Shown here piece after piece: positions 1,193-61,005 of a stretch of 64,000 nucleotides of DNA. The number at the start of each line of letters is the position of its first letter. Position 1 is the stretch's first letter. The stretch comes from a virus: positions 1 through 64,000 of the IMG/VR virus record IMGVR_UViG_3300032050_000072. The stretch is one strand, 5' to 3'. The notes beneath the pieces were generated by a model that worked only from the letters and a program-made list of their open reading frames with translations, was not told where the DNA came from and searched no databases. Both the position numbers and the translations under genes were made by a program.

Positions 1193-1226
1193 CGCTGCCC
1201 CTCCGTGTCACGCAACAAGTTGCGGA

Positions 1227-1631
1227 CTAGACTGTCGTTTCGTCGTATCGGTTCGGATGATCGCTCTGCTCGACGACCACCGTCACGTCCCAAATATCGC
1301 GGCTGATTCGCGTCGCCTCGGGCGGCTCCACAAACGAGCATATGACCTCGCGATAGTTCGAGTCGCCCTTGGGCTGGTAGCGATAGATAAAGTCGTTCGC
1401 CAACCCGCCAATCGCCTCGAAGAAGGTCACAAAGGCGTTCATTTCCGAATCGCTCAGCGACTCGAATTTACGAGTCACCTGATAGCGAGTCGGCGCGTGC
1501 TTGACGGCGTAGAGAGAGTTCGCCGAAGTGCGATGCACGCTCTGGGCGAGTAGCGGCTTGACCGCCGCGCCGCCCGCAGGCCACGGCATATTGAGAGTCG
1601 TCACGCCCGCTTTCTTGAATTGCACGCCCAT
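1227..1631 (-). CDS. Minor tail protein, possibly distal-tail (lambda gpM-like)
   Basis: 134 aa; pattern ..LSDSEMNAFVTFFEAIGG..FIY..WDVTVVVEQ resembles gpM/Dit-like proteins; located in the tail module. Confidence 0.55.
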   Translation of the reverse strand: MGVQFKKAGVTTLNMPWPAGGAAVKPLLAQSVHRTSANSLYAVKHAPTRYQVTRKFESLSDSEMNAFVTFFEAIGGLANDFIYRYQPKGDSNYREVICSFVEPPEATRISRDIWDVTVVVEQSDHPNRYDETTV

Positions 1632-1646
1632 CAGCCCGCCCCCAAG

Positions 1647-2150
1647 CTAGCGCCCAAGGACTTTGCTGATCGGCTTGGTGCCATCTGCTTGGCACAGCAT
1701 CCCAGCCGCCTTGAGCGATTCGTAAACCTCGTCACGCTCCTTGTCGCAGTCGGCGATCGCTCGCTGAGTCTGCGGATCGAGGGTCTGCTCCCACTCGATC
1801 ACTGTCCCCGGCCCGCTGGTCATCAGGTTGATTCTGGCTAAGATCGCGTCGCGAGTCTTGTCGTCATAGTGCGGAAAGCATGTCGCAATCCGCATGTCCT
1901 CAATCCGCTCCCAGCGACGACGGCAAGCCATCATCGCGTAGTGTAGAGCCGCCACCAAAGGCAGGTCGAGAATGTCACTGTGCGACCAGTGATACTCGCC
2001 TGCGATTGGCTCGACGACATCAAGGCTCCAAGTGTTGTACGGCAGCGTTCGGCTGCCGACATTTACTCGGCTTCGCCGCTCGCTTGCTTGGTCGTTTCGG
2101 ATCGACGGCCTGCGGCGTCCATAAGGCCCCCAATCCGACCAATAAAACCC
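1647..2150 (-). CDS. Tail assembly chaperone T segment, reached by -1 frameshift (G-T fusion)
   Basis: The -1 frame from the slippery site at 2144-2150 is open to the stop at 1647 and encodes IAGEYHWSHSDILDLPL, a motif typical of gpT segments. Confidence 0.8.
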   Translation of the reverse strand, partial: GFYWSDWGPYGRRRPSIRNDQASERRSRVNVGSRTLPYNTWSLDVVEPIAGEYHWSHSDILDLPLVAALHYAMMACRRRWERIEDMRIATCFPHYDDKTRDAILARINLMTSGPGTVIEWEQTLDPQTQRAIADCDKERDEVYESLKAAGMLCQADGTKPISKVLGR

Positions 2151-2650
2151 ACGACGGCCTCCACGGTTTCATGGACCCCCGTGAGTTCAAGAACCTCGGC
2201 GATAATCGCCAGCGCATCGGTGATGCTCAAGGCCGAGATTTCGGCAGGCTTGAGATTCGTGCAGCCGCCGATCAGAGCTTCGATCGCGCCGTCCGAACTG
2301 ACCACCAAGTCGACGATCGCCTCGGTGCGAGCCGAGTTCGACTCGGAGATCATCCGCTTCTGCTCGACGCTCAAGTTGGCGTAAGCCTCTTGAATCAGAG
2401 CCGCTTTGACCTCTTCGCTCGGTGCGGCATTGATCGCCGCCCGCTGTTCCGGGGTAACAAAATCGCCAAGCACCAGTCCAGCCGGGATGCTCTTGATCCC
2501 AGCCTTGGTGATCGCACCCACCACTCTGAACGTGGTGCCAAGCGATAGGCCGCGAACCGACACGCTCGCGCCGTCCTTGGTCACGATTTCCGAAACCCGC
2601 TTGATAGGGGCATCCACCGGCACTTGCCGTGGATCGACTGCCGTTGTCAT
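2063..2650 (-). CDS. Tail assembly chaperone G
   Basis: 195 aa between the tail tube and tape measure genes; carries an in-frame G GGT TTT slippery heptamer near its 3' end. Confidence 0.8.
   Translation of the reverse strand: MTTAVDPRQVPVDAPIKRVSEIVTKDGASVSVRGLSLGTTFRVVGAITKAGIKSIPAGLVLGDFVTPEQRAAINAAPSEEVKAALIQEAYANLSVEQKRMISESNSARTEAIVDLVVSSDGAIEALIGGCTNLKPAEISALSITDALAIIAEVLELTGVHETVEAVVGFIGRIGGLMDAAGRRSETTKQASGEAE
2144..2150 (-). other. Programmed -1 ribosomal frameshift site G GGU UUU
   Basis: X XXY YYZ heptamer in the correct phase (codons GTG GGT TTT); the -1 frame joins ORF 1647..1958 without a stop. Confidence 0.8.
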
Positions 2651-2736
2651 AAAAAACTCCCGCGAACTTTAAGAGCCGCGCGGGTGACGTTCGCAAGCCA
2701 CCCGCGCGGTTGCCCCGATCTAACAGGCTGACATCG

Positions 2737-3258
2737 TTAGCTCGTCGCCACGCCGATCTTGCCGATCAACTGGCCGTCGCTCTTGCTCTCGTCGATCAGC
2801 ATCTTGAAGGTCGCTTCAAAGACGCGATCGTTGCCGACCGAGCCGAACTGAACTTCACCCACGTCCGACACGACCGCCTTGTAGAACGTCACGTCGTCGA
2901 CCGTGCCCGAGCCGTCGAGCGGGTGCAGCACCAGCGCACCGGCCAGCGAACTGCCCTTAGTGCCCGGCAGCTTGCCGATACCCCAGCAGCTTGAACTGAT
3001 CGAGCTACCGAACTGGTAGACCGTCTGCACAACCTGCATCGTCTTCTCGGCGAACTTCGCCTTGCAGTCGACCTGATCGCCTTGGTAGATCAAGTCGGCC
3101 AGATGCTCGCCGTACTCGTCCACCTTGCGCTCGCGAAGCTGCGGCTTGACGCCGAACGTCACGCCACCCATCGTGTGACCGCAGGCGACCGATTTGTACG
3201 TCACCTTGCACGGCCCGGTTTCAATTTTACTGAGATCACCACCAACTTGGCTTGCCAT
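2737..3258 (-). CDS. Major tail tube protein
   Basis: 173 aa (IETGPCKVTY...GHTMGGVTF...KVDEYG...LVLHP), beta-rich; directly upstream of the chaperone and followed by a GC hairpin at about 2675-2710. Confidence 0.8.
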   Translation of the reverse strand: MASQVGGDLSKIETGPCKVTYKSVACGHTMGGVTFGVKPQLRERKVDEYGEHLADLIYQGDQVDCKAKFAEKTMQVVQTVYQFGSSISSSCWGIGKLPGTKGSSLAGALVLHPLDGSGTVDDVTFYKAVVSDVGEVQFGSVGNDRVFEATFKMLIDESKSDGQLIGKIGVATS

Positions 3259-3330
3259 GATTTTGCCCCTTTTAGATCGGATGAATTGCCCTTGTCAGCG
3301 CAGACAGGGAAGACGCCGCCGATCAATCAA

Positions 3331-4900: not shown

Positions 4901-5272
4901 CTAAGTTGCCGACCTGCGAAGAAACGCCACCTTGAGTTTGCGGGCATTGGCCGGATCGCGCGTCGAGATCACCAGCCAGCTTGTCGATGATCCAGTCTCG
5001 TCGGTGATCGTCAGCCGATCGCCCAGTCCGTCCGACTGCGAAGCTCCCGGCCTGATATCGGTCCCAGCCGGAAAATAAGCCATCGCGTCGAACTCGATAT
5101 CCGTGCCGTATTCCTTGGTCGACTTGCGCGCGTCGCGCGGATGCAAGGCGCAGGCCACCGCCGACATGCCATTCACAGCCGCCAGCGTCGCCTTGCGAAC
5201 ACCCGTTGCCGACTGCGAGACGGTCGGACGAGAAACAGCCGCCGTGAAGTTCATCCTGCGGAGAGCGGGCAT
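4901..5272 (-). CDS. Head closure / head-tail adaptor
   Basis: 123 aa beta-rich protein with DIRPG..GDRLTI pattern; next to the gp10-like gene. Confidence 0.6.
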   Translation of the reverse strand: MPALRRMNFTAAVSRPTVSQSATGVRKATLAAVNGMSAVACALHPRDARKSTKEYGTDIEFDAMAYFPAGTDIRPGASQSDGLGDRLTITDETGSSTSWLVISTRDPANARKLKVAFLRRSAT

Positions 5273-8535: not shown

Positions 8536-9117
8536 TTAGCTGGAAACTCGATAGCGGTTTAGAATCGCTTCGGCCTGAGCGGGAATCCCGCCAGCCGTAA
8601 GCTCCTTTTGATAGTAGTCGTTCCGGTCGCCAAGGTCTTCTTGAGCGAGTTCGTTTTGGATTCCGCCACCCGCAAGCTGCTTGGCTCGCGTGTAGAGGTC
8701 GGCCACGATGATGTTCGCGGCGTGAACCACGTCCTTTGGCAGCGTCGCATAGCCCGCCGAGTAGACGACCTTAATGTTCCGCCTGCCCTCGGACCAGACG
8801 CCGGTCGTGTGAAAGATCAAGCCCGGCTCGGCGTCGAGATAATAGTCCTCGGCGTCCTCGTCGTTGTCTGGATCGAAATCCCAGCCAGCATCGACATTGA
8901 CCGACGTGACGCTAATCACCGGATAGTTCGCCAGCCGGATGAAGTCGCGGCCATTGCCGTCGAGGCGCTCGGTGTAACTGGTCGACTCCAGGCTTCGGCC
9001 CAAGAATCGCTTCACCATGTCGTCGGCATACAGAATCAGCGCAGCCAGCAGCGTGTCGTCGCCGCTGCCGGAGATTCCGATGTACTGCTTGACGTTCGTC
9101 GAGTTGGTCAGCGACAT
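8536..9117 (-). CDS. Head-tail connector (gp6/gp15-like adaptor)
   Basis: VKQYIGI..DDTLLAALI, YPVISVTSV and VVYSAGY..LP.DV..A motifs; ends ILNRYR. Confidence 0.88.
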   Translation of the reverse strand: MSLTNSTNVKQYIGISGSGDDTLLAALILYADDMVKRFLGRSLESTSYTERLDGNGRDFIRLANYPVISVTSVNVDAGWDFDPDNDEDAEDYYLDAEPGLIFHTTGVWSEGRRNIKVVYSAGYATLPKDVVHAANIIVADLYTRAKQLAGGGIQNELAQEDLGDRNDYYQKELTAGGIPAQAEAILNRYRVSS

Positions 9118-9425
9118 AGAGCTTCAACGAGTTCGACGAACAGCCGAATCGTGTCCGGCGTCGTCTGGGTGTGGAAGGTCAGCGTGCGGCTCGTCCCCTG
9201 AGCCTGCTCGGGATAAGCCCGCAGGCTCTTGCCGAGCGACTTCGCCATTTCCTCTAGCTTGTGATTCGGGTACTTCAAAATCGCGAGCGTGATTTTCTCG
9301 GCCTGAGAAAGCTCAGCGGCCTCCGCAACTTGTTGCGTGCCCGAATCGACCTCACCGGAGAGCACTCTGCCCCTTGTGCTCTCACGGCGGGCCGGTGTTT
9401 TGGTCTTTTCCTGATCTTCGCTCAC
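9108..9425 (-). CDS. Hypothetical protein
   Basis: GTG start overlapping the GT4 stop; fills the gap in the operon. Confidence 0.5.
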   Translation of the reverse strand: MSEDQEKTKTPARRESTRGRVLSGEVDSGTQQVAEAAELSQAEKITLAILKYPNHKLEEMAKSLGKSLRAYPEQAQGTSRTLTFHTQTTPDTIRLFVELVEALCR

Positions 9426-11378: not shown

Positions 11379-12178
11379 GGCCCCATGAACCTCCGGCCAA
11401 GATTCTCGGTAGCCCGCAGCTTCTCGGCCATCGCCTCTTGCTTGCCGCCGTGGTCGCCCGTGATCGTGCCTGCCGCCTTGACGGTCGAGCAAAGCACCTT
11501 GGGAATCCGCACGAAGCCTTCGCCGCCGTAGAGCTTTTCGATCCGCATGAACAGACCGTAGTCGCCGCCTGGGAACTCATTCGCCCCGACCTCGTTCTCT
11601 GGCCCGTGCCAGCGATAGCCGCCGACTGCCGAGTAAGCGATCGCCGGGAAGCATCGCACACCCTCGCCGGGGCACATCGCCGCCTTGAGCATCCACGGCT
11701 GATAGTCGGGCTTCTGATAGTGGCCTATGATCTCGCCGTCGCCATCCAGGTGGATACAGTCTCCATAGACAAACCCAGCCCCATCGACGATCGCCTGCCG
11801 CACCAGATCGAGCGTGTCGTGGGTCAGAAAGTCGTGGTCGTCAAGTTCGATGATCCAGCCGCCCGGTCGAGCCATCGAACAGCCCGCGTGCCGCGCCATG
11901 TTGACGGTCGACACCCGATTCCGCATGTAGTCGAGATTGATCTCCAAAATCGCGTCGGCGTGAACGAATTTGGCCGGGTCGCTTTCGTTCCGGTCGTCGT
12001 CAGAATCCCGCACGATGATCCAGCGATCATGCGGCCCAAGCTGATCGGCCAGCAATTCGGCTTGATGCTCCAGATCGCGCGGTCGGTTTCGGGTCGGCGT
12101 CACGATGTCGAGAAAGACATCGGCGACCGATTCGGGCTTGACGTAGCCGAGCGTGGTGAGGATTTGCGGCGGCTTCAT
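11375..12178 (-). CDS. Glycosyltransferase family 2 (GT-A)
   Basis: DIVTPTRNR, WIIVRD, ARHAG, ELDDHD (DxD), VYGD, VGGY and DYGLF motifs. Confidence 0.88.
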   Translation of the reverse strand: MKPPQILTTLGYVKPESVADVFLDIVTPTRNRPRDLEHQAELLADQLGPHDRWIIVRDSDDDRNESDPAKFVHADAILEINLDYMRNRVSTVNMARHAGCSMARPGGWIIELDDHDFLTHDTLDLVRQAIVDGAGFVYGDCIHLDGDGEIIGHYQKPDYQPWMLKAAMCPGEGVRCFPAIAYSAVGGYRWHGPENEVGANEFPGGDYGLFMRIEKLYGGEGFVRIPKVLCSTVKAAGTITGDHGGKQEAMAEKLRATENLGRRFMGP

Positions 12179-12181
12179 GCC

Positions 12182-12388
12182 TTAACCTCCGTAGACACCA
12201 GGACGATCGCCGGACGCCGCCATTGACGAATCACGACGCTCCAGCGGCACATCAGACGGCTCGCGAATCACCGTGCCAGCGCCGCAGGCATAGAGCGAGC
12301 GAGCGACCGGCTCGGGGACTTCGATGATCTCGCCGACCATTCGCATTTCGCCGTGGATGCAGGTCGGCCTGCTGAGAACTACGCGCAT
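12182..12388 (-). CDS. Small head-associated protein of the type usually found just after the capsid gene
   Basis: GEIIEVPE..ARSL..CG pattern typical of short genes between capsid and connector. Confidence 0.45.
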   Translation of the reverse strand: MRVVLSRPTCIHGEMRMVGEIIEVPEPVARSLYACGAGTVIREPSDVPLERRDSSMAASGDRPGVYGG

Positions 12389-12457
12389 TGAAAAGGCTCC
12401 CAAGTGAATGAACACATGGGAGCCTAAACGATGCCGCAGATTCTTGCCTTGAGCGGA

Positions 12458-12817
12458 CTACGCCGGATTCTCGCAACTTGTTGCGGACGACTTGCCATCC
12501 AGGTAGAAGCCGACGCGGCTAGCCATCGCCTCGCTGGCGTCGTCGAACGGCTCGATGCCAAGATACGTCTTGAGCTTGCGATTTTCGTCGAGCACTTGCT
12601 TGCTTGATCGCAGTTCACGCTCAAGCTCGTCGATCCGCTTCGTCAGCTTCAAGACTGAATCGCGAGCCTCGTCACGCTCCTTGAAAGCGTCTTGAAGTCG
12701 AATCTCCAGCGATTCGATTCTAATTTTGGCGTATCCGCTGACACACGATGACTCTGGCATTGGTCGACCTTCGGCGGCGACTTCGATCACGCCGCCGAGC
12801 GTGGTTCGGTCAGACAT
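12458..12817 (-). CDS. Coiled-coil hypothetical protein
   Basis: 119 aa; N-terminus (GGVIEVAA) resembles that of the upstream gene (GGVVEVSA). Confidence 0.55.
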   Translation of the reverse strand: MSDRTTLGGVIEVAAEGRPMPESSCVSGYAKIRIESLEIRLQDAFKERDEARDSVLKLTKRIDELERELRSSKQVLDENRKLKTYLGIEPFDDASEAMASRVGFYLDGKSSATSCENPA

Positions 12818-13568
12818 TTTCGACGACCTCCTTCTTATCCAGCTTGCTCAGTTGAATGTCAGCAAGCTCAACGGCTGCCCTGCTGGATTCGGCCAACGCT
12901 TTTCTGCGACTGGTTAGCTGCTGCATCGGCTTGTTCATCAACCGAAGTTGACGATGCCGACGAGCACTCTTTTGCCGAGTCCGTTCGAGCTTGGCGGTCA
13001 GATTTTCGATCTGCTCGTGCAGTTCGTTGACCTCGCGGACATGGACCTCGCTGGCCTCAGCCCAGCATCGCTGGAACTCAAGCATTGAGATCGCTGGCTG
13101 CGTGTCGACCTTGACGAGTTGCTTCGCGCGAATGACCGCGTGATGCTTGTGTTTTGTCTCGGCCAGCAATTGAAGATCGCTGGCTGGTACAGGCGACTTT
13201 TCGCCGCACAAGAACACCCGTTCCTCGGCATCGCCTGGAATCCAGCCGCAGGTCGAAACCTGGAACACCGCCCGATCGGACCTCCGAACGACCGTATCGC
13301 CGGACTTGAACGGAAGCTGCTTCTCCGAGCGCTCGACCCGCTTGGTGATCGTGCCGCACTTGATTCCATCGCCGAGATCGGCCACCGAGACTTCACAGTC
13401 GTCGCCGACCAGCGACTTGAGGAACTCCATAATCACGGCGTCCGACTCCTCGGGCTCACACGCCTGGACGTTCTTGATCGCCGCCTTGCAGCAGCCATCT
13501 TGACCACAGTCGACCGGCTCCTGACTCGCCGCCGAAACCTCGACCACTCCACCAATTTGCACGCTCAT
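12810..13568 (-). CDS. Hypothetical protein (SH3-like middle, coiled-coil end)
   Basis: Likely ATG at 13568 (MSVQIGG); contains an FKSGDTV small-domain motif. Confidence 0.55.
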   Translation of the reverse strand: MSVQIGGVVEVSAASQEPVDCGQDGCCKAAIKNVQACEPEESDAVIMEFLKSLVGDDCEVSVADLGDGIKCGTITKRVERSEKQLPFKSGDTVVRRSDRAVFQVSTCGWIPGDAEERVFLCGEKSPVPASDLQLLAETKHKHHAVIRAKQLVKVDTQPAISMLEFQRCWAEASEVHVREVNELHEQIENLTAKLERTRQKSARRHRQLRLMNKPMQQLTSRRKALAESSRAAVELADIQLSKLDKKEVVENV

Positions 13569-13578
13569 GTTTGATCTC

Positions 13579-13914
13579 CTAAATCTCTTGGGCTTCCGCC
13601 ATTTCGTCGAAACTATCGTAAACCGGAGCCGCCATGTCGAGCTTCGTGTGATCGTAGGCTCGCAGACGCTCCATAACACGCATCAGATTGCTTGGCCTGC
13701 CGAGCTTCTCCAGCAGGATCAAGTGCCCAGCACACTGAACCTCGGCCTTGCCGCTCGCGCCGCCAGCCCGCGTCGTCTTGTGGCACGGGAAGCCGCCTTG
13801 GTCGAGCGATTGCTCAATCTCACGGACCCGCTCGCTGTTCAGGTACGGTCGAACGTCTGACCGGAACGGGCAGTTGCAGCACGGCGATTTCATGGCATAC
13901 GGATCGTGACTCAT
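13579..13914 (-). CDS. Cys/His-rich zinc-binding phage protein
   Basis: PCCNCPFR..FPCHKT..QCAGH motifs; directly downstream of promoter P1. Confidence 0.65.
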   Translation of the reverse strand: MSHDPYAMKSPCCNCPFRSDVRPYLNSERVREIEQSLDQGGFPCHKTTRAGGASGKAEVQCAGHLILLEKLGRPSNLMRVMERLRAYDHTKLDMAAPVYDSFDEMAEAQEI

Positions 13915-13949
13915 GATTTTGCTCCGCAACTTGTTGCGTTGATCTATCT

Positions 13950-15525: not shown

Positions 15526-15561
15526 CAGTGAAACTGAAAATTATTCGCAACTTGTTGCGGG

Positions 15562-15936: not shown

Positions 15937-17220
15937 CTAGACCAAGCTGGTCACGCCCGCGAGAACTCGCGTGCGGGCCATTGGTTTAGTCACCGGAAGG
16001 ATGGGTTTTCCGTCGCACCTTTGCGTGAACTTGATCCACATTTGGTGAGCCGCGAACGAATCGCCGCCCTCCATCGTGGACTCGACCGCAAGCTGCTGCC
16101 GGTCGAACCAGCAGTAGTACCGGAGATCGCCGATGCCGAGGTAGTTGTTCGGCAAGCTCGCCTCGATCGAGTACGGCACACCCAAGATCGTGCTGACACG
16201 ACCCGTGAGAGCACCGCCGTTGATCGGCACACCGCCGTCGACGAAGATCGGCAAGCCGTTGCCGTCGACCACCTGCATCAACGCCGCCAGCACGTTCTGA
16301 TTCATCGTCCAGCGGAACGATGGCGAACTGTGGTAGCGAATGTCGACCGAGTGCTTGAGCTTGACGATGTTGGCATACGTCAGGCTCGTGATCGTGACAT
16401 TCGTGATGCCGCTGGCCGAGTACAAGCCAGTCGGTCGGCCCGTGCCGCTACCGATCGCGATCACCTTGTCGTTCTCGCGAGCGATCGCCTCTTGGAACAA
16501 CTCAACCACCGTCGTCACGATGTCCGGGTTGGCGTCGCTGACGATTTCTCGACTCAGCTTGACCATCGCGTTCATGCGCTTGACGGTGTAAGTGTTCTGC
16601 CCGAACGTCACCGACGAGCTATTGTCGGTCATCGCCGAGCCTTCGGTGTCGCCCCAGGTCACACTCGCGTTGGTGCCGACCGCAGGCATTTCACCCGAGT
16701 CACCAGCCACCGGAATCCGACGCACGAACTGGAACAACTGCGAAATCTTCGGGATGTCGCGGGTGATCTCAGGGATGAAGCCCGGAGGAATCAGGTAGCC
16801 GCCGTCAGCATTGGTCGTGCTCAAGGCACGAACCAAGCCAGGATCGGCATCCGAGCCCAACTGCTCGCCCACCGGCACCTTGAAGATCGCTTGGCGGAAG
16901 AACGCATTGAGAGCCGCCCGGCGTTGGCCGCGTTGCTCGCCCGGCAGTTCGTTCCACGGCGTCCGGTCCATCACGTCATGCGTCTTGAGGCCGCGCGTCG
17001 CCGCTTCGATCTCAGGGAAACGCAGGTAGCGTCGGTCGGTCTTGTCCGCACCGGCTTCCTTCATGTGCTTCTGGAACATATCGGCCATCGCGCGAGCGAC
17101 GGTATCGCCCACAATCGCCTCAACCGAAGCCTTGAGAGCAGCCGGATCGGTTGCTCGCAAGTTTTGCTCTTGTTCGTCCTTGGTTGGCTCGGTCTTGCCC
17201 GGCCAGTCGCCCTTACTCAT
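15937..17220 (-). CDS. Major capsid protein (HK97 fold)
   Basis: DGGYLIP, VKLSREIVSD, IAIGSGTGRPTG, LGVP and IGDL..Y motifs. Confidence 0.97.
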   Translation of the reverse strand: MSKGDWPGKTEPTKDEQEQNLRATDPAALKASVEAIVGDTVARAMADMFQKHMKEAGADKTDRRYLRFPEIEAATRGLKTHDVMDRTPWNELPGEQRGQRRAALNAFFRQAIFKVPVGEQLGSDADPGLVRALSTTNADGGYLIPPGFIPEITRDIPKISQLFQFVRRIPVAGDSGEMPAVGTNASVTWGDTEGSAMTDNSSSVTFGQNTYTVKRMNAMVKLSREIVSDANPDIVTTVVELFQEAIARENDKVIAIGSGTGRPTGLYSASGITNVTITSLTYANIVKLKHSVDIRYHSSPSFRWTMNQNVLAALMQVVDGNGLPIFVDGGVPINGGALTGRVSTILGVPYSIEASLPNNYLGIGDLRYYCWFDRQQLAVESTMEGGDSFAAHQMWIKFTQRCDGKPILPVTKPMARTRVLAGVTSLV

Positions 17221-22571: not shown

Positions 22572-22609
22572 GGGTTTTCGAGCCTCGATGCCCGCAACTT
22601 GTTGCGGAT

Positions 22610-37678: not shown

Positions 37679-37705
37679 GTGTCCGCAACTTGTTGCGTGG
37701 TTCAG

Positions 37706-45445: not shown

Positions 45446-46354
45446 TTAAGGCTTGAGCCACAGGGCTAGATCGCCCGCGCTCATAAAGCCGGTTGCCGTT
45501 TTGACCGCCTTGCTGCGGCCAATGCCACGAACGCCAGGATCAAGAATCATCGTTGTCGGACAAACCCGCACGCGATAGCGATCGAACGCAGCGTGATCCT
45601 CTTGCGAGTCCAAGTAGACGAACTTGTACTTTTGCAGAGCCGCCTTGGCTGGCTCCTTGTCGAGTTCGGCCTTGAGTTTGCGACACGGCTCGCAGCCGAC
45701 CATGCCGAATATCGCCAGCACTTTCTTGCCGTCCTGCTTGGCCTCGGCCAGAGCGGCGTCGAGCTTGTTATTGCCCCGAGCTTCCGGTTCGCGGTAGGAA
45801 ATACGGCGGCACGACTGGCAACCCGACTGAACCTTGCTGGCTCGATTCGGACACGACTCGCACTGGCAGTCGCCGCACTTACACGGCCCGCCACTGAGCA
45901 AGCAAGTCACCCGCTGCGGCGTAATCGCCTCGCGATGGCACTCACTGCTCCAGCTTCCGTCAGCCTGCTGGCGGTAGATCACGAGCTTTTCGCCTTCGCC
46001 CCATTGCTCGTCGAGTTCCTTGCGGTACTTGCTCAGCACGCTCACTAGCACGGCCCTGTCGGCAGCCGGATGCAGCGTGTTGTCGCTCACCAGCACGGCC
46101 AGCGGCGTCTTGTCGGCCAGGGCCTTGTCGTAGGCAATCTTGTAATCGTCGACCGGCTCACGCTCGAAAGAACTATCAGGCGGCAGGCCGACATCGACAG
46201 CCACCGCAAGCTCATCGGCGCGCGACTCGAACACAGCCACGACCGGCTTCGACTCCGCAACAAGTTGCGTGACGGCTGGCTTGGCCTGGAGCGAGAACGA
46301 ATTGAAAACGCAAACGACGATCGCCGTCAGCAGCGAGAACTTTCCCGAGTTCAT
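45446..46354 (-). CDS. Exported thioredoxin-fold protein
   Basis: Signal peptide; C-terminal ALAEAKQDGKKVLAIFG..GCEPC..PT thioredoxin domain; degenerate N-terminal copy and a Cys-rich linker (CKCGDCQCESC). Confidence 0.85.
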   Translation of the reverse strand: MNSGKFSLLTAIVVCVFNSFSLQAKPAVTQLVAESKPVVAVFESRADELAVAVDVGLPPDSSFEREPVDDYKIAYDKALADKTPLAVLVSDNTLHPAADRAVLVSVLSKYRKELDEQWGEGEKLVIYRQQADGSWSSECHREAITPQRVTCLLSGGPCKCGDCQCESCPNRASKVQSGCQSCRRISYREPEARGNNKLDAALAEAKQDGKKVLAIFGMVGCEPCRKLKAELDKEPAKAALQKYKFVYLDSQEDHAAFDRYRVRVCPTTMILDPGVRGIGRSKAVKTATGFMSAGDLALWLKP

Positions 46355-48742: not shown

Positions 48743-49813
48743 TTAGCCGATAGCATTGGTGAGCCGCTCCCATAGCTCGTGGACAATTCCCCGCACTAGG
48801 TAGCGGCGATCCTCGTCGTCCAGGTTTTGCTTGGCTTCGATCAGCTTGGCAGCGCGAATGATATCGTCGCCCATGAACTCAAAGCGATCCCGCCCACACT
48901 CAGGCCCGCAGACATCCTTGCCAGATTCGGACACGCAACAAGTTGCGGGCTCAGACTCCGGTGCCGCCTCGACCACTTCCTTTGGCTTTTCGACTGCCTT
49001 CTCTGGTACAGGATACAGGGTGTCGGTTGCTTTCACCAAGTCGGTTAGCTCCTCGCGGGTGTGACCGGCAGCGATCCAATCACTGACATCACCTTTCGGT
49101 GGCAGGCCCGGCAGCCGCACGATCTTGATCGACGACGCCTTACCGACCAGTGACTCGACAATATCGCGGGCGTGTTGCTCGCCGACTGAGTAGCCGAGCT
49201 TTTCGTCGACCGGATCGTTATCGGGCAACACGACCACATGACAGCCCTTGAGAAAATCCGAGTAGCCAGCGTTCCATTTGCCAGCACCCATCGGGTTACA
49301 GGTCGCCACCAGCCCGAGCCCGACCAGCGTCTCGACATCCTTCTCGCCTTCGGGCACGAACACCACTCGCTTCTTGGCGTTAGCGATCAACTCCGGCAGC
49401 CGGTAAAGCACCCGACGACACTCACCCAGACCCCAGACCCAGCCGTCGCCTTCCGGTCGGCGCTGGCGAAACTGCTTGCCCTCTAGCCGCACGACTTGGT
49501 ACAGCAGCTTGTGCTCTTCGTCGCGGTAGTCGTATGTCTTCTCGATGTTACTGCTCATCACCGTCCTCCTTCTCGGTTTCTGACTGTCAAAAAAATCGCT
49601 CGCCTTGAGTCCAATCGCCTGAATCACCTGCTGGAACGAACACCCTCGATGGCAGCGCATTAGCAGGCGGTTATTCTTGACCGCGATCGACAAGCTCGCG
49701 TTATGCTTGCCATCGGTTTCGTGGGCCGGGCAATGGGCCTCCCACCCCCAGCGACGTTCGCGGCACTTGTGCAGCTTCTCGAATACGCCAGAGAACTGCG
49801 GCGGATAATTCAC
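48743..49813 (-). CDS. DNA primase (zinc-binding + TOPRIM)
   Basis: CPAH..SLSI..CHRGC, YDY, LYRLPE, EGEKD, PDND and KGDVSDW motifs. Confidence 0.9.
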   Translation of the reverse strand: MNYPPQFSGVFEKLHKCRERRWGWEAHCPAHETDGKHNASLSIAVKNNRLLMRCHRGCSFQQVIQAIGLKASDFFDSQKPRRRTVMSSNIEKTYDYRDEEHKLLYQVVRLEGKQFRQRRPEGDGWVWGLGECRRVLYRLPELIANAKKRVVFVPEGEKDVETLVGLGLVATCNPMGAGKWNAGYSDFLKGCHVVVLPDNDPVDEKLGYSVGEQHARDIVESLVGKASSIKIVRLPGLPPKGDVSDWIAAGHTREELTDLVKATDTLYPVPEKAVEKPKEVVEAAPESEPATCCVSESGKDVCGPECGRDRFEFMGDDIIRAAKLIEAKQNLDDEDRRYLVRGIVHELWERLTNAIG

Positions 49814-51260: not shown

Positions 51261-51581
51261 CTAAAAATTTGCCGCAGTCTCATTCTCGACGACTGCACTT
51301 GCCGCCTCGAATGGCAGTTCCTTCTGACCATCCAACGGCTCCACTCGCGGCACGCCGTCAACCATTCGCTCGACGGCTTCTAGCACCGCCGTGATTGCCT
51401 GCGAAGCCTCCGATGCGTCTTCGCCGATCTGGTCAACGTCGTACATGGCACCGCCGATCGCCGACAGTATTTCCCTGGCTCGGAGGAGAACGTCGACATC
51501 CCGCTTGCCGAGCTTGAGTCGCGGCTTCCTTCCACCGCCAATTAGAATCTGCATGATAAATGCTCCAGTGAATTGAGTCAC
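51261..51581 (-). CDS. Hypothetical protein
   Basis: About 100 aa; GGAG RBS lies before the ATG of MQILIG. Confidence 0.55.
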   Translation of the reverse strand: MTQFTGAFIMQILIGGGRKPRLKLGKRDVDVLLRAREILSAIGGAMYDVDQIGEDASEASQAITAVLEAVERMVDGVPRVEPLDGQKELPFEAASAVVENETAANF

Positions 51582-51612: not shown

Positions 51613-53013
51613 CTAAGCGTCAACGGATAATTTGCGAAGATTCTGATTTAGGTGCGGCCATTCGTGGTAGCTGTGAATGGAGGCGAAGACGCCCCAGCAA
51701 GCGTGACCCAAATGGTCTTCGCTTCGGTCGCCGCCGAGCCACAAGAACAGGTGCCGAATCGCGTGATTGAGTAAGTCGCTGACAGGAAATCCACGTAACC
51801 AATTATGGTCACTATATTTGTCGGCTCCTTCCTTGTAGACCGCCGCCAATCGCTCCATGCCACGGAACGGCAGCCCGTCACCACAGAACTCGCCGCCTTC
51901 AATCTCGTTGATCGCATCGAGCAGGCAGTATGCCGCACGCTCTAGCTGGCCCGAATCCCATTGACCATAAGACGCCAGTAGCATTGCGTCGCACGCCGTC
52001 TCGACAAGCTCGCTCGCTTTCTTGGCGACATCGACGAAACGCCGTTGGTGCTTGCGGATTTCACGCAAGGCGACCGGCGTGATGAGATCAAATCGCACGC
52101 CATCGGCGTCCGTGCTGCGCGTGGCTCCGGTTTCGTGCGTGCGACGGTCGGCCTCTGGCTTTGGCGATGTTTCGATCGTTCCAGATTGGCACGGCTCACC
52201 CGGTATTCCGCTGAGAGTCTCGAACTCGCGAGTATCCAGACGGCCTTCCCATGAATCGACAGCCACACCTGGACCGATCACCGCGACAGCGTGAGCCCAG
52301 CCGCTCGCCTCCGCAACTTGTTGCGGTGTCATGTCGACCGGCTTTAGCTGCGGCTTGATGGCGGCACTGAGTTCGCAGAAGACCTCCAGAAATAACTGCT
52401 CGGCGTCTTCCCACTCCAGACATTGCAGCGGCTCCCAGCCGCCAGCGAGCAGATCGCTCGTGCCGTTCCAGGCCCACGTTTCGCCACGGTCGGCCATGAT
52501 GCACTTCGACTCGTAGCGAGTCACATCGTTGTCGGCCTGCTTGACGAAGCCAGCCACTTGAACATTGTCGGTCAACTCGCCGACTCCGGTGTGCTCGTCA
52601 ATCAACCGCTGCACCTTGCGGTCGAGTTCATCCAAGAACCGATAGCAATCTGGGAATCGCCTCTGGAGCATACGCTTGCGCGGTCGAATCATGTCTTGGT
52701 TGTAGGCTTCGTGGCCGTCGTGCATCAAAGCGAGCATCGCGATCCCATTGAGCGGAACCTCGCCACTGATGCCAGCCGACTTGGCAATCTCGACCGCCCG
52801 CTTGCTGACCAGCACGCTATGCTGGGCATTGGAATAGAACACCTGGCAAGCCCCGTTGTAGCGACAGGTCAAGGCTAGAGCGTGAGCAATGTGCTCGATA
52901 TCCACATCGTCGATCGTCATCTTGGTCGGCGTCACGAGCGGACCTTTGTAGGTCACTGTGCCACCGTCTTCGCTCACCAAGCCGTCAATCGTTTCATCTG
53001 CTTTGCGAATCAT
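51613..53013 (-). CDS. HD-domain deoxynucleotidase fused to a DUF5664-like (dATP/dGTP diphosphohydrolase) domain
   Basis: IAHALA..RYNG..YSNAQHS..LMHDGHEAY..D (YfbR-like); TGATR..RFDLI and GADKY..HNW.RG..RHL..EDHLGHA. Confidence 0.8.
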   Translation of the reverse strand: MIRKADETIDGLVSEDGGTVTYKGPLVTPTKMTIDDVDIEHIAHALALTCRYNGACQVFYSNAQHSVLVSKRAVEIAKSAGISGEVPLNGIAMLALMHDGHEAYNQDMIRPRKRMLQRRFPDCYRFLDELDRKVQRLIDEHTGVGELTDNVQVAGFVKQADNDVTRYESKCIMADRGETWAWNGTSDLLAGGWEPLQCLEWEDAEQLFLEVFCELSAAIKPQLKPVDMTPQQVAEASGWAHAVAVIGPGVAVDSWEGRLDTREFETLSGIPGEPCQSGTIETSPKPEADRRTHETGATRSTDADGVRFDLITPVALREIRKHQRRFVDVAKKASELVETACDAMLLASYGQWDSGQLERAAYCLLDAINEIEGGEFCGDGLPFRGMERLAAVYKEGADKYSDHNWLRGFPVSDLLNHAIRHLFLWLGGDRSEDHLGHACWGVFASIHSYHEWPHLNQNLRKLSVDA

Positions 53014-54689: not shown

Positions 54690-54790
54690 CGCGTCACCTG
54701 AGTGGAATAAATAACCCGGCTTGAGCTACCGGGCGGGAGCGATTCGGGAGGAGCGAATCGACAAGCGTGGATCACGCAACTTGTTGCGGA

Positions 54791-55744
54791 CTAGAACGCG
54801 GCTGCCGGATTCGACCAGCGTTCGCGATCCTCTTCGCTGGCGAGATCGAACACGCCACGCGGAATCCAGCCCATGCCACGGCATTGATTGCAGCAGTCGC
54901 CGTTGCAATGCGGGCAGACGGTGTACGGTGCCATCGTCTTGAGTTCTTTCTCAAGGCTCTTGCTCGCGGCGTTCATTTCCGGCAAAGCTCGCTCCAGGTA
55001 AGCACCGGCAGCGGTATCGCAGAGAACCTTCACTCGCTTGCGGAAATCACGCTGCAAGGCACACAGAGCGTCGAACTCTTTGAGCATGTCCCAGCACTCG
55101 CGCAAGTCGGCTGGAATTTCGTGGCCGAGTTCGTCGGTCGTGATCTCGTCCTGCTCGTCTTCATCGGGAACGCCCGGCGCGTCGTCGCTTTCCTTGCCGC
55201 CCATCAAGTCATCGCCAAGCTCGTCGATGATCGTTCGCAGCTTCACATCGCCGTTGACGACTTTCTTGAACAGGTCCGGCCTTTCGACTCGCAGCTTGTC
55301 AGCGAATCGCAGGTAGCGGCGATTGGTGCCGATCTGCTTGGCGAGATCGTCAAGCTCCTCGTCAACCGGCTTCGGCTTCGGCGTTGGTTCCCCTGGCTTG
55401 GCTGGTTTTGCTTCCTTCTCGGCAGCGTCACGCAGTCGTCGCTGAATTGACATCGCTTGGCAAGCCACGGCAGCGCGCTGACTGCTCGATAGATGCCTGC
55501 GGCTAGCGTTGAGCGACATCACGAACGACACGATCTGATCTTCGGTCCCGGTGTATTCTTGAGTTGGGCACTCGATCCCAAGCTCCTGGCAGCAAATGAA
55601 ACGGTGCCTGCCGTCGATGACCTGATCCTTCCAGACCCAGACCGGAATCCGCACGCCGTTCTGGCGAATGTCTTCGAGCATGGCCCGCTTTTCGTCGGGG
55701 TCCATTTCTGGGAATAGCGTGCAAACCTCATGAAACTTCAACAT
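54791..55744 (-). CDS. ParB-N domain protein with HTH
   Basis: DIRQNG..P..IDGRHR, SLN..RRHL...QRA, LAKQIGTNRRY HTH and C-terminal CPHC..CNQC. Confidence 0.8.
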   Translation of the reverse strand: MLKFHEVCTLFPEMDPDEKRAMLEDIRQNGVRIPVWVWKDQVIDGRHRFICCQELGIECPTQEYTGTEDQIVSFVMSLNASRRHLSSSQRAAVACQAMSIQRRLRDAAEKEAKPAKPGEPTPKPKPVDEELDDLAKQIGTNRRYLRFADKLRVERPDLFKKVVNGDVKLRTIIDELGDDLMGGKESDDAPGVPDEDEQDEITTDELGHEIPADLRECWDMLKEFDALCALQRDFRKRVKVLCDTAAGAYLERALPEMNAASKSLEKELKTMAPYTVCPHCNGDCCNQCRGMGWIPRGVFDLASEEDRERWSNPAAAF

Positions 55745-55764: not shown

Positions 55765-56583
55765 TTACTTGCCTGCGTTCAATTCCACCGAACGCACTGA
55801 GATCATTTCGCCTAATTGTTCCAACTCTGGCCCTGAGAAGCCGTAGGTGGACTTCGCAAACTCATTGCCAAGCTGAGCCAGCTTCGCCAGATCGGCAGCC
55901 CTGGCGATCGCCGCCTCGGCCCGCTTGAGTAGCATTTGCTTGTTGCTCTTGGCTTGATCGGCGCTCTGCGGCCTCGCCGGATTCGACATTGCCTGGGTGG
56001 CATTGCGTCGGCCAGCACCAGCAGCGCCCGCTGGCCTGCGGTCGGACGGCTTTCGCTCCGGCACGCGGTCGTCGTGGTCGCTGTCGTCCATGTCGCCCTC
56101 TTCGACCGGGATGCACAGCCCGAGCGTCATGGCATACTTGTAGGCAACGCTGTGGGCCTTGTTCGCCGCCTTGTCGCCGTTGTGATCGCAGGCCGAACCG
56201 AACGCCTCGAAGCTGACATTCGATCCGTCTGGCGCGTAGAGCGTGACCCGCAGGTGAATCTTGGCGAAGATTACCCAGCGGAACTTGGCTTTCAGACGCA
56301 GCCATTCATCCAGCTTTGCCAGTCGAGGGTCTTCGGTCGCCACAAGGTCTTCGGTCGCGGAGACGATCGCAGTCGAGAGTGTGATGCCGCACTTGGTCAG
56401 CGCCGGACCCACGGCATTGAGAATGTCGTCGATCCCTCGGAAGCGATAACCCTGGCTGTCGTTTTTCTTGGCTTTGACGATCGCGCCGATCTCGGCCCGC
56501 ACCATCGGAACCAGCCGGAAGATTTCAGGCCCGCAACTTGTTGCCGCTGGCTCCGGCGTCTCTTCTGCATTTTCACGGATCAC
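55765..56583 (-). CDS. ERF-family single-strand annealing protein
   Basis: QGYRFRGIDD and D..DKA..KA.SVAYKYA motifs. Confidence 0.85.
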   Translation of the reverse strand: MIRENAEETPEPAATSCGPEIFRLVPMVRAEIGAIVKAKKNDSQGYRFRGIDDILNAVGPALTKCGITLSTAIVSATEDLVATEDPRLAKLDEWLRLKAKFRWVIFAKIHLRVTLYAPDGSNVSFEAFGSACDHNGDKAANKAHSVAYKYAMTLGLCIPVEEGDMDDSDHDDRVPERKPSDRRPAGAAGAGRRNATQAMSNPARPQSADQAKSNKQMLLKRAEAAIARAADLAKLAQLGNEFAKSTYGFSGPELEQLGEMISVRSVELNAGK

Positions 56584-57649: not shown

Positions 57650-57997
57650 ATGGGTGAGTGGATGTCGTCGCGTGATATCGAATCGTCTTTTACGGAACCG
57701 CTGCTCAAGTTCGTCGGCTCAATCAATTCCATCTGCGATCGGATGCGTGACCGCCAAGCGCCTCCGATACTCCTAAATACCGCCCAGGCTCGCCGCTCAA
57801 TTCAGCACTTGTGCTTCGAGTTCTTGCACGAGCTTGAAGGCAAGAATCGGCAAGACGAACTCGGGATGCTTCGCCGCCGTGGTGCGTCCGACAAGCCCGA
57901 AGACGATGAGCCAAAGCCTTCGCGGCCCGGTCGCGGCAGCAAGAAACCGCAAGCCGCTCGCAAAGCCAAGCGACCACCGAAGCGAAAAGCGGCCTGA
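57650..57997 (+). CDS. Hypothetical protein with basic tail, divergent from P10
   Basis: AAGGT RBS and ATG; K/R/P-rich C-terminus. Confidence 0.6.
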   Translation: MGEWMSSRDIESSFTEPLLKFVGSINSICDRMRDRQAPPILLNTAQARRSIQHLCFEFLHELEGKNRQDELGMLRRRGASDKPEDDEPKPSRPGRGSKKPQAARKAKRPPKRKAA

Positions 57998-59516: not shown

Positions 59517-59715
59517 AAAATAACGACTTACGACAACTTGGCCCAGTGGCGGAATAGGCAGACGCAAAGGACTTAAAATCCAACGGCCTATCTTGATGCT
59601 ATACTGATCTTCGGCAGATCGCTAGAACGCCTTGGTTTTAACTGGCAGAATCATCGGCAGATTCCAATGCTTTTGCCAGTTGATTGCAGTTCTTGGTCGC
59701 ACTTCTTGTCGCACT
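59443..59715 (+). other. attP: 5' half of tRNA-Leu(UAA) (59540-59581) flanked by arm-type direct repeats
   Basis: GGCCCAGTGGCGGAATAGGCAGACGCAAAGGACTTAAAATCC stops within the anticodon stem; TTGGTCGCACT at 59443, 59455 and 59693, TTGTCGCACT at 59706. Confidence 0.85.
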
Positions 59716-59718
59716 CAA

Positions 59719-59928
59719 TCAGTCACCGCACCTGCACGCCGCAGGCATCTTGCCGCACTCTTCGCACGGCTTAACATCGTCTTCGACGCACTCGCAAACG
59801 CCAGCCCGCTTGTCGCAGAGCCAGCAGATCAAGCCGGAGCCAAGACAGTCGATACATCGACCACCGGACTCGTAGCGGCCCTTGCCGTTGCACCAGATGC
59901 AAGGTCGGCGGATCATGATTGTGGTCAT
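59719..59928 (-). CDS. Small Cys-rich zinc-finger protein
   Basis: CIWCNGKG..CIDCLGSG (DnaJ-type CxxCxGxG) plus further CxxC pairs. Confidence 0.55.
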   Translation of the reverse strand: MTTIMIRRPCIWCNGKGRYESGGRCIDCLGSGLICWLCDKRAGVCECVEDDVKPCEECGKMPAACRCGD

Positions 59929-60638
59929 TTGCGAACCTCGTGCCAGTGATCCCTGTGCGTAGCCGGGTCCAAAATGCCGTCCAGCGGATCGCCGACCCAC
60001 AGGCGGCAATGCTGATGCTCGGCGTGCCACTCCGGCCCAGGGCAGTACGTGCCGCCATCGGCTCCGATATTCTGGGCGCGGCTCAAGACCGGATAGACCT
60101 GATAGCGGTCGCCACGAATGTGCTTGTTGACTCCGATATCCCACGGGTGATAGCCCCAGTTCTTCTTCATTTCGACGAAGCGATCCTCCCAGGTGCCCCA
60201 GCCCCAGGGCGAGAACCATTGGTCGCGGCCCAATTCCTTGAACATGCCGCGATGGTGTCGATCGGTGCGGTTGTTCCAGGCCGTCACCGTGAAGACTTCG
60301 CGGTCGTCGCGGTAGGCGTTGTTCATCCAGGTGAACATTTCCAGGGCGTCTTCGCCGAGCAGCACATCGTCCTCGACATGTACGACGAACGAGCCGTGAT
60401 CGAACCCGAGCGACAAGGCTTGCAGCGTGTTCTCGCCGCAGCCGAGCTTCTGGCGATTCTCGACCAGTACCACATCGCAGGGAATCGTCTCGATCGCCGC
60501 GATGATCTCGCCCTTGAACTCACTCGGCTCGATGCAGGCGATCAGTGTGGAATTGCCGATGCCACGAACCTTCGCCAGTGCGGCAGCCCATTTTCGCGTG
60601 TAGACCGGACGGTTGAATTGGCAGGTTGTCAGTATCAT
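59925..60638 (-). CDS. GT-A fold glycosyltransferase
   Basis: FNRP.Y, VHVEDD, FSPWGWGTW..R and SRAQNIG motifs. Confidence 0.8.
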   Translation of the reverse strand: MILTTCQFNRPVYTRKWAAALAKVRGIGNSTLIACIEPSEFKGEIIAAIETIPCDVVLVENRQKLGCGENTLQALSLGFDHGSFVVHVEDDVLLGEDALEMFTWMNNAYRDDREVFTVTAWNNRTDRHHRGMFKELGRDQWFSPWGWGTWEDRFVEMKKNWGYHPWDIGVNKHIRGDRYQVYPVLSRAQNIGADGGTYCPGPEWHAEHQHCRLWVGDPLDGILDPATHRDHWHEVRK

Positions 60639-60654
60639 TTCTCGCGCCTATACT
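60626..60654 (+). promoter_or_regulatory. Plus-strand sigma70-type promoter
   Basis: TTGTCA-17 bp-TATACT upstream of 60711. Confidence 0.6.
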
Positions 60655-60710
60655 TTGGTGAATGTCAATCTATTCGCCACCTGGAGTCAATCAGCGTGCA
60701 ACCAGCACAA

Positions 60711-60905
60711 ATGTCTCGCTTCTGCAAAGTCTGCGACCGAAAGACGCTGCACACTGAGGAACAACGCGGCTGCGGACACCTGATCTTTGCTCTCGTGCTC
60801 GCGATCCCGACCGCAGGCTTGTCGCTGCTCTGGCTGGCGGTGATCGGCTTTGTGCCGACCGTCAAGCGATGCCAAACCTGCGGAACCGGACGAATCCGAA
60901 TCTGA
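60711..60905 (+). CDS. Small CxxC-TM-CxxC (LITAF-like) membrane protein
   Basis: CKVC..HLIFALVLAIPTAGLSLLWLAVIG..RCQTCG; has its own promoter. Confidence 0.7.
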   Translation: MSRFCKVCDRKTLHTEEQRGCGHLIFALVLAIPTAGLSLLWLAVIGFVPTVKRCQTCGTGRIRI

Positions 60906-61005
60906 AAATATGACCAGTGCCGCTCTCGCGGAAACGGCACCGGCCCCTGCGGTAGATGGTAGTTGCAATGCCGCAGGCCAATTGCAAGCTCCGCAACTTG
61001 TTGCG

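Follow-up and report, generated by a model that had tools for sequence, protein, structure and literature searches.

The phage record and its palindrome

The viral record IMGVR_UViG_3300032050_000072 is 83,617 bp long, and its first 64 kb, referred to below as the window, carry a 14-bp palindrome, CGCAACWWGTTGCG, which recurs through the genome both between genes and inside them. Record positions 1–258 and 83360–83617 are 98% identical (five mismatches); this end overlap gives a unique length of 83,359 bp and indicates that the record is probably circular or terminally redundant. The tape-measure gene, about 1,320 aa in all, spans the junction of the record, and so the open reading frame (ORF) at 1–1192 and a 990-aa ORF at the other end are parts of one gene. 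Codon-usage scoring across the record called 121 ORFs, of which 117 lie on the minus strand, which is therefore taken as the sense strand. As judged from scans with PHROG and Pfam, which took in about 70 of the 121 ORFs, the gene set is that of a temperate siphovirus-type phage (table 1). Seven tRNAs are present in the genome, and Rfam at its gathering threshold returned tRNAs only from the window.

The palindrome consists of two 6-bp arms, CGCAAC and GTTGCG, on either side of a 2-bp centre. Exact copies number 21 in the window, where none is expected (100 dinucleotide shuffles), and 26 in the whole record, where the reversed control pattern is absent. The initial annotation had described a genome-wide element in 22 copies: the excess over background stands, and the 22nd copy may be one with a single mismatch at 56532, possibly a decayed or an incipient site. 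The motif is by far the most repeated 12-mer of the genome (26–27 copies), the next unrelated word occurring nine times. When up to two mismatches and a free centre are allowed, only three extra matches appear in the window (7010, 56532 and 57153) against a chance total of 6.8, so there is no family of degenerate copies and the array is all-or-none.

On the plus strand the centre reads AA in eight copies and TT in 18, and never AT or TA. That the centre is always AA or TT, as had been noticed for the copies seen first, thus holds for 26 of 26 in the whole record, an outcome with a probability of about 1.5e-8 if A and T were equally likely; chance copies in bacterial genomes do carry AT and TA centres. 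The genome at large is poor in short palindromes, since 31 of the 64 possible 6-bp palindromes are absent and 45 occur at most twice, with 75 of the 4,032 other hexamers absent, and CTAG is found at one third of its expected frequency. An AT centre would create ACATGT (two occurrences in the genome), and a TA centre would create ACTAGT (none) together with CTAG; the centre is AA or TT because these words are purged from the genome. With either permitted centre, the 14-mer contains no 4- or 6-base palindrome. Isolated half-sites, CGCAAC and GTTGCG, are also rare (8 and 3 against medians of 29 and 26.5), but they rank only 153rd among 1,828 hexamer pairs, and this depletion was dropped as evidence either way because the genome purges many words. 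The non-palindromic restriction-type words CTGAAG, GAATGC and GAGACC are absent as well, and some other words are in excess: CGATCG occurs 162 times against 26 expected, and CGATCG, GATC and TCGA are approximately 3- to 6-fold over-represented.

Spacing, placement and conservation of the copies

The copies are spread through the phage at a density of one per 3.2 kb, and they are spread evenly. The gaps between them have a coefficient of variation of 0.545, where random placement gives 0.966 on average (P=0.0007). The longest gap, 6,943 bp between 28648 and 35591, is short beside the 12,325 that random placement gives on average (P=0.004), and it is the motif-free stretch that the initial annotation had pointed out. 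AA and TT orientations come in runs, with six switches round the circle (P=0.017). Nearly all genes lie on one strand, yet the centres on the sense strand are 18 AA and eight TT, and orientation is thus independent of transcription.

Placement relative to genes is far from uniform. Sixteen of the 26 copies are wholly intergenic, though non-coding DNA makes up 9.5% of the genome (binomial P ~1e-10), and ten are in ORFs. Among the 15 intergenic copies that have an upstream neighbour on the sense strand, ten begin no more than 7 nt past its stop; 2.6 would be expected under uniform placement within the gaps, and ten was reached in 0 of 200,000 simulations. At eight sites, the offset past the stop codon is exactly 2 nt. 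Two of the copies in ORFs overlap the last codons of their own ORF (12472 and 24967), and three are buried well inside long genes (portal, primase-like and phosphatase–MazG), at or close to the limits of domain matches. The copies in ORFs occupy all three frames, two of which demand minority codons (GCA 0.11, ACA 0.09, AGT 0.11, ACT 0.09, GTT 0.18 and CTT 0.11 of synonyms) and also cysteine, which accounts for 1.7% of codons. The array is strongly selected. The earlier claim that selection acts on the DNA is borne out by the use of three frames, by the minority codons, by the even spacing and by the chance-level occurrence of the motif in the candidate host order (see below); the positions on which it drew, namely the gene-junction copies at 1211, 4885, 54775 and 60992, the one at 13925 that closely follows a promoter, those 20–36 nt upstream of −35 boxes (15546, 22593, 24967, 28648 and 42164) and the in-ORF peptides ATSC, RNKLR, QQVA, ATCC and QLVA, were all recovered.

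A regular-expression search found 16 sigma-70-like promoters on the sense strand, 15 of which share one conserved cassette, and one further promoter, upstream of 57479, was read by eye. The cassette has the form TTGAC-N4-GTCTA...CGATATACT, with an A/T tract upstream and a leader that contains AACCACCACCA and GAGATCAAGATCATG; its copies lie at 13950–62961 in the window and at 65152–75378 outside it, all on the sense strand. A copy of the palindrome is found near eight of the 16 promoters. Six copies are 20–36 nt upstream of the −35 box, each at the far end of the gap by the upstream stop, and two follow the −10 box at a distance of 11 nt, at promoters 13978–13950 and 69571–69543, the latter outside the window. 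From −35 to +13 the cassettes contain conserved dyad-like sequences of their own, and it may be these that serve as the true lysogeny operators. The initial annotation had proposed a genome-wide lattice for silencing or partition. Against it stand the operator-like sequences of the promoters themselves and the promoters that have no copy nearby.

Conservation could be followed in one related strain (contigs L006 and L141–L143), which is 85–96% identical. The motif is kept at all six comparable sites (75415, 42164, 28648, 27942, 24967 and 22593), two of them inside a block of 85.5% identity. At 22593, AA is swapped to TT in the related strain, with more than 90 identical bases upstream and approximately 70 downstream; the flip would be explained by a single inversion of the spacer, for example through template switching at the inverted repeat. 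A further contig that spans 11880–12841 differs at 12 positions, and among the differences listed none falls within 12472–12485.

Wider relatives are few. No nucleotide match to the phage was found among cultured phages, and the portal protein gave no match in genome contigs. A search with TerL returned one close viral contig and 20 distant ones (28–48% in the best segment, 15 of them 28–36%); the 20 distant contigs hold no copy of the motif and no comparable array of their own. Among the matches listed in a scan of viral contigs for the motif, L006 has four copies and L036 two adjacent ones, and the rest are single, as by chance.

The host is tentatively placed in the planctomycete order Pirellulales. 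Directly past the stop of the integrase lies an attP-like fragment (59546–59581), whose 36 bases equal the 5′ half of tRNA-Leu(UAA). The tRNA genes concerned are those of Lachnospiraceae, Anaerolineaceae and Pirellulales (91 stretches), and a matching G+C content (0.60–0.61) together with an acceptor stem one base off is found only at two Pirellulales loci. Beyond the related strain, the best TerL relative is in a Pirellulales genome as well (49% over residues 22–300, or 38% over 23–476 by tblastn). The tentative assignment follows from these three observations: tRNA fragment, G+C content and TerL match.

The palindrome is not a repeat of this host order. Neither of the two Pirellulales genomes with the tRNA-Leu locus contains it, and in 301 Pirellulales genomes 48 hold one to three copies, with all four WW centres and at a rate close to that of the reversed control; this amounts to roughly one copy in tens of megabases, where the phage has one in every 3.2 kb. 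The initial annotation had named a host repeat as one finding that would undo its reading, and in the tentative host order the motif instead stands at chance level. A host repeat of the REP or MITE type was accordingly rejected, on the zero to three copies per genome in the tentative host order and on the ten of 26 phage copies that are in ORFs. The same counts bear on the idea that a global regulator or nucleoid protein of the host reads the motif and that the phage has collected its sites. The layout, which we take to be LacI/PurR-like (abutting CGCAA-type half-sites in a 14–16-bp dyad), would suit such a protein. A host reader would, however, be expected to have sites of its own in the host genome, and we consider this origin extremely unlikely.

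Table 1. Copies of the palindrome in the window and other features of the phage genome (centres as read on the plus strand; gene functions are predictions)
Feature	Position	Centre or strand	Context
Copy	1211–1224	AA	2 nt past stop of ORF 1227–1631; 18 nt ahead of tape-measure start
Copy	4885–4898	AA	2 nt past stop of ORF 4901–5254; 12 nt ahead of next start
Copy	9324–9337	TT	within ORF 9108–9425, reads TQQVA
Copy	12472–12485	TT	C-terminal tail of ORF 12458–12817 (SATSCE), 14 nt ahead of stop
Copy	13925–13938	TT	11 nt downstream of −10 (promoter 13978–13950); 10 nt ahead of start of ORF 13579–13914
Copy	15546–15559	TT	20 nt upstream of −35 (promoter 15525–15497); TAA 2 nt upstream
Copy	20132–20145	TT	in portal gene 19125–21593, residues ~483–488 (PATSCV); portal match ends at 505
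Copy	22593–22606	TT	directly past terminator-like hairpin; 21 nt upstream of tRNA-array promoter; centre flipped in related strain
Copy	24967–24980	TT	last codons of ORF 24962–25564 (PATSCG, stop); 29 nt upstream of −35 (promoter 24937–24909); kept in related strain
Copy	27942–27955	TT	10 nt ahead of start of ORF 27581–27931; at similarity break with related strain
Copy	28648–28661	AA	3 nt past large-terminase stop; 30 nt upstream of −35 (promoter 28617–28589)
Copy	35591–35604	TT	basic C-terminal tail of ORF 35560–36171 (RNKLR), 31 nt ahead of stop
Copy	36199–36212	TT	basic C-terminal tail of ORF 36168–36683 (RNKLR), 31 nt ahead of stop
Copy	37684–37697	TT	7 nt past 3′ end of tRNA-Arg (37705–37778); 17 nt ahead of start of ORF 37262–37666
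Copy	42164–42177	AA	7 nt past stop codon; 36 nt upstream of −35 (promoter 42127–42099); kept in related strain
Copy	46256–46269	AA	within ORF 45446–46354 (TQLVA), 85 nt from called start
Copy	48934–48947	AA	primase-like ORF 48743–49813, residues ~289–294 (PATCCV), just past primase-domain match 93–282
Copy	51245–51258	AA	2 nt past stop of ORF 51261–51554; then 392-nt non-coding gap
Copy	52312–52325	TT	ORF 51613–53013, residues ~230–234 (PQQVA), between phosphatase-like (19–224) and MazG-like (367–457) matches
Copy	54775–54788	TT	2 nt past stop of ParB-like gene 54791–55744
Copy	60992–61005	TT	directly past stop of SSB gene 61006–61425; then 353-nt non-coding gap
One-mismatch copy	56532–56545		last base C; inside 5′ end of Erf-like gene
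Candidate reader 1 (ParB-N-domain protein)	54791–55744	minus	317 aa; ParB-type N-domain (DGRHR), ParB-type helix-turn-helix (HTH), C-terminal CxxC...CxxC zinc ribbon
Candidate reader 2	36680–37258	minus	192-aa HTH_23 protein with Cys-rich middle; within densest copy cluster (37684, 36199, 35591)
ParB-N-domain protein	34086–34616		one of three
ParB-N-domain protein	61436–62230		one of the three
Small XRE protein			PHROG/Pfam
Small and large terminase	28665–30648		PHROG/Pfam
Portal fused to head-morphogenesis domain	19125–21593		PHROG/Pfam
Major capsid protein	15937–17220		PHROG/Pfam
Protease or scaffold			PHROG/Pfam
Tape measure	across record ends		PHROG/Pfam
Integrase	58014/58320–59516	opposite to most genes	general phage-integrase models only
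RecE-like exonuclease, Erf, helicase, primase			PHROG/Pfam
SSB	61006–61425		PHROG/Pfam
DNA methyltransferase homologues (two)			PHROG/Pfam

Duplex DNA, RNA or a DNA transaction

The bases next to the 14-mer bear on the form in which it is read. Position −1 is C in 16 copies and A in ten, mirrored at +14 by G16/T8/A2, and position −2 is C16/T7/A3, mirrored at +15 by G13/A11/C2; positions further out carry no signal. The mirrored flanks extend the element to an 18-bp degenerate dyad. As RNA, the flanking bases would pair in only six of the 26 sites (A..G 10, C..T 8, C..G 6 and C..A 2), compared to about half predicted from the marginals, which argues that a longer stem is not selected.

An RNA element would be a 5-bp hairpin with a CAAG or CUUG loop, serving in protein binding, mRNA processing, protection of 3′ or 5′ ends or translational coupling. 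Such a role would suit the ten of 15 intergenic copies that follow a stop closely, the copy 7 nt past the 3′ end of a tRNA and the two at approximately +5 of transcripts; nearly all copies are transcribed in one direction, and of the five that T-rich tracts follow, a simple scan calls three terminator-like. Nevertheless, the predicted hairpin has little stability (−3.3 kcal/mol) and makes up 47% of the ensemble, and the copies do not resemble intrinsic terminators, T-rich tracts being present only after five copies, which precede the UP-like tracts of promoters. Furthermore, at least three copies lie deep in long genes. The sequence is invariant without covariation of paired bases, the sense strand carries both loop versions and the flanks show the symmetry of a DNA site; taken together, these features favour a site in duplex DNA that is read with two-fold symmetry, and we regard an RNA element as distinctly unlikely.

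On balance, we lean towards the view that the 26 copies are high-affinity docking sites in duplex DNA for a two-fold symmetric, sequence-specific protein. The binding of a protein to the array is an inference from the form and placement of the sites; the reader would be a dimer, or a single chain with two reading heads, and is probably phage-encoded. Selection would keep approximately one site per 3 kb. If that number is required, the copies would be placed where they cost least: beside an upstream stop, in protein linkers and in C-terminal tails. Hugging the stop would put a site at the maximal distance from the downstream promoter, its UP-like tract and the ribosome-binding site. At two promoters the site covers approximately +5 to +18, so that RNA polymerase would be blocked by a protein bound there, and at six it directly precedes the UP-like A/T tract. 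At the other sites, a bound protein might halt transcription or insulate the many co-directional transcription units from one another, or the site might serve to load a sliding clamp of the ParB type.

Several points weigh against a docking site of this kind. The evidence for conservation comes from one related strain. No binder was found, and comparative tests of the ParB-like candidate (described below) were negative, most of the relatives available for them matching in the N-domain only. The strict offset of 2 nt at eight sites is explained only indirectly by placement at least harm, and would fit an RNA or gene-cassette role too. Finally, the complete lack of degenerate copies is unusual for a family of operators and would also fit recent copying.

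Copying is central to a further explanation, in which the palindrome is the footprint of a DNA transaction (a recombination linker at module boundaries, the target of a site-specific nickase or recombinase, or a mark for the DNA-modification enzymes of the phage) and its copies are identical through copying. An asymmetric centre of the AA/TT type gives serine recombinases polarity. In line with such a transaction are the 26 identical copies without degenerate relatives, the centre that flips as a unit and copy 27942, which marks the exact point where the match to the related strain breaks off. The phage also encodes Erf, an exonuclease, two DNA methyltransferase homologues and a predicted cytosine-modification operon, and in Cluster O mycobacteriophages indels are bounded by their repeat (PMC4351075). 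The remaining differences between the strains are, however, gains or losses of whole promoter cassettes and not at the motif: a promoter and small-gene cassette of 407–410 bp (28182–28589, with ORF 28259–28540), flanked by two promoter-cassette copies, is missing in the related strain and likewise in one further contig. Homologous recombination needs more than 14 bp, the proteins scanned (from about 70 of the 121 ORFs) include no serine recombinase, and copying alone leaves both the even spacing and the placement in protein linkers unexplained. A footprint of this type therefore appears quite improbable.

Other elements were compared and set aside. Integron attC sites are imperfect palindromes of 57–141 bp with RYYYAAC...GTTRRRY cores, found after cassette ORFs and used by an IntI integrase. 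The AAC...GTT likeness and the position after stop codons were noted, but the motif measures only 14–18 bp and the integrase matches general models only. The LexA box, the PurR/LacI operator, Chi, DNA-uptake sequences and T5- or tf-type nick sites do not seem to fit in length, symmetry or distribution.

Candidate readers, known systems and neighbouring genes

The docking-site reading calls for a protein, and the initial annotation had put forward the product of gene 54791–55744 as binder. Alone, this protein gives no Pfam match and no significant match in the PDB. Its family is mostly viral and large (21,645 cluster representatives at E<=1e-3), and a profile built from 50 of its full-length sequences picks up Spo0J (1vz0, E=1.6e-10), Noc (7ng0, E=2.5e-10) and other ParB structures over the N-domain and HTH, with no PDB match over the C-terminus. 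By this profile evidence the protein is a real member of the ParB/Noc type. In the nucleotide motif GxxRxxA it reads DGRHRFIC, so that GxxR is kept and the final A is replaced by C. At the C-terminus, a conserved zinc ribbon takes the place of the ParB-type dimerization domain, and the first 180 residues resemble a module that is fused to many phage DNA methyltransferases. Phage ParB-fold proteins are diverse and mostly uncharacterized, according to a 2025 survey (PMC12704722).

Comparative tests gave no link between this protein and the motif, and the earlier proposal thus survives in the identity of the protein and not in its assignment to the array. Sixty-three viral loci with the N-domain signature were collected, of which 62 were confirmed by tblastn, nearly all over residues 2–100 or 2–176 only; none of the 63, in up to 15 kb each, shows a dispersed palindrome, and apparent repeats near two of them (L170 and L168) proved to be tandem repeats. 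A Pirellulales genome (G030) encodes a full-length homologue (32%) and has a TerL match on another contig. There is no array in the 47 kb around this homologue or in the 83 kb examined besides, and only four of the 121 phage proteins match there. Searches of viral and metagenome contigs with the ParB-like protein found no match, nor did a query with a 55% homologue; a two-sequence alignment used as query found one locus, matching in the N-domain only. A dispersed palindrome on a contig of another planctomycete genome (G565:C92) seemed at first to lend support and proved to be a REP-like element found throughout that genome. This element is a GC-rich palindrome of 20 bp in 90 copies per 3.4 Mb (for example, L327 12900–12919), with 8-bp arms around a CCCY/RGGG spacer that occurs in both orientations.

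The ParB-like protein may still be the reader in a specific sense: an NTP-gated clamp would load at the 26 sites, slide for approximately 3 kb and coat or silence the chromosome, in the manner of KorB or Noc and without ParA. The profile match to Spo0J and Noc over both domains, the retained GxxR and the copy found, as had been reported, 2 nt past the stop of this very gene are all consistent with such a clamp, and a 14-bp dyad at even spacing would suit a clamp of limited range. Against it stand the failure of Pfam to call ParB_N in the protein itself (it is called in 13 of the 50 family members), the zinc ribbon in place of the usual dimerization domain, the methyltransferase-associated N-terminal module, the two other ParB-N proteins of the phage and relatives at which no dispersed palindrome was seen. 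We consider a clamp of this type rather unlikely. The second candidate, the HTH_23 protein at 36680–37258, is a candidate reader by position only.

The best mechanistic model for a reader of the ParB type, by analogy, is KorB with its OB sites. Plasmid RK2 has 12 OB sites in three position classes. KorB, the ParB-family protein of this IncP plasmid, loads at dispersed OB as a CTP-gated clamp, slides and acts at a distance, and thus works from dispersed sites as the phage protein would (PMC11790492). Both systems have a perfectly conserved, dispersed short palindrome on a mobile genome, at, near and far from promoters, and both encode a ParB/Noc-type protein. They differ in that KorB has the partners IncC (ParA) and KorA, neither of which was found in the phage, and in that the phage protein ends in a zinc ribbon. 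A second parallel is Noc of Bacillus subtilis, a ParB paralogue that binds palindromic NBS across the replicon and has no role in partition. It shares with the phage system the scattered palindrome, and its structure is among the profile matches given above; Noc differs in being a chromosomal cell-division factor with a membrane-targeting helix.

A partition function, one half of the lattice first proposed, is unlikely. A ParA-type Walker A motif (KGGxGK[ST]) is absent from the 121 ORF calls and no ParA family was found among the proteins scanned, so this is not a classical partition system; the phage, moreover, has an integrase with the attP-like tRNA-Leu fragment beside it. The comparison with mycobacteriophage stoperators fared no better. 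In Cluster A phages, L5 gp71 binds more than 20 copies of a 13-mer spread through a temperate genome, in promoters and short intergenic spaces, and silences beyond promoters (PMC9283540). Stoperators are asymmetric, are bound by a two-domain monomer and work in one orientation only with respect to transcription (PMC9283540). The motif described here is a 6+2+6 palindrome with symmetric flanks and is free in orientation, as the two classes of sense-strand centre demonstrate; it is therefore not a stoperator. For the ORF that adjoins the integrase (57650–57997), neither Pfam nor PHROG gave a match; no gp71-type query was used.

Of the published cases, a repeat in Cluster O mycobacteriophages comes closest, the likeness being one of kind and not of homology. 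This repeat is 17 bp long, has 34 copies in Corndog and consists of invariant inverted arms around a short, asymmetric A/T spacer that occurs in both orientations, mostly as TTT/AAA (PMC4351075). Its copies are found in short gaps between genes, close to gene starts and within coding sequence, few being near promoters, and it is not a repeat in the host genomes checked; the authors infer a dimeric DNA-binding protein, and their description of the repeat gives no function (PMC4351075). Invariant arms, an asymmetric A/T spacer in both orientations, intergenic as well as coding copies and absence as a repeat from host genomes are common to the two systems. The arms are 7 bp around 3 bp in Cluster O and 6 bp around 2 bp here, and the host here is probably a planctomycete. 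The phages themselves are unrelated: tblastn with the ParB-like protein listed two phage records only, neither of them Corndog. Even spacing, close placement behind stop codons and a centre restricted by genome-wide avoidance of palindromes go beyond what the description of the Cluster O repeat contains (PMC4351075).

A literature search found no function assigned to dispersed phage repeats of this sort, and the array joins a class of elements that is known but unexplained. Invariant dispersed palindromes, present even within genes, turn up in unrelated phage lineages, and the Cluster O repeat has been in print since 2015. The phage described here adds a clean case, with even spacing, least-cost placement, a centre shaped by restriction avoidance and a candidate host order without the array. 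The list of candidate readers is short, which makes the question testable by simple binding assays; besides the two proteins discussed above, it takes in the products of 34086–34616, 34620–34898, 57650–57997, 61436–62230 and 62232–62450. Should a ParB-fold reader that lacks ParA be confirmed, clamp-type management of genomes would extend from plasmids and chromosomes to integrating phages.

A broader proposal is that the array is a loading lattice for a partner-less ParB-fold NTPase clamp (54791–55744 or another of the ParB-N proteins) that coats the chromosome and marks it as 'self', or insulates the approximately 17 promoter cassettes. We hold this to be decidedly unlikely. If true, self-marking could direct the enzymes of cytosine hypermodification and methylation, or protect the DNA against nucleases of the host.

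Two groups of neighbouring genes concern DNA modification. An operon immediately upstream of the terminase genes (30694–34616), which sits in the largest motif-free gap, encodes a ParB-N protein, a DNA methyltransferase homologue (C5-type; PHROG E=2e-78), a large protein of an unknown PHROG and a CmoA-like 'tRNA methyltransferase' homologue, and is predicted to be a cytosine-modification operon. The ORF at 51613–53013 fuses a dNMP-phosphatase-like domain to a MazG-like pyrophosphohydrolase, and a second MazG-like protein is encoded at 38361–39428; by analogy, these proteins suggest that the phage remodels the nucleotide pool in the way that phages with modified bases do.

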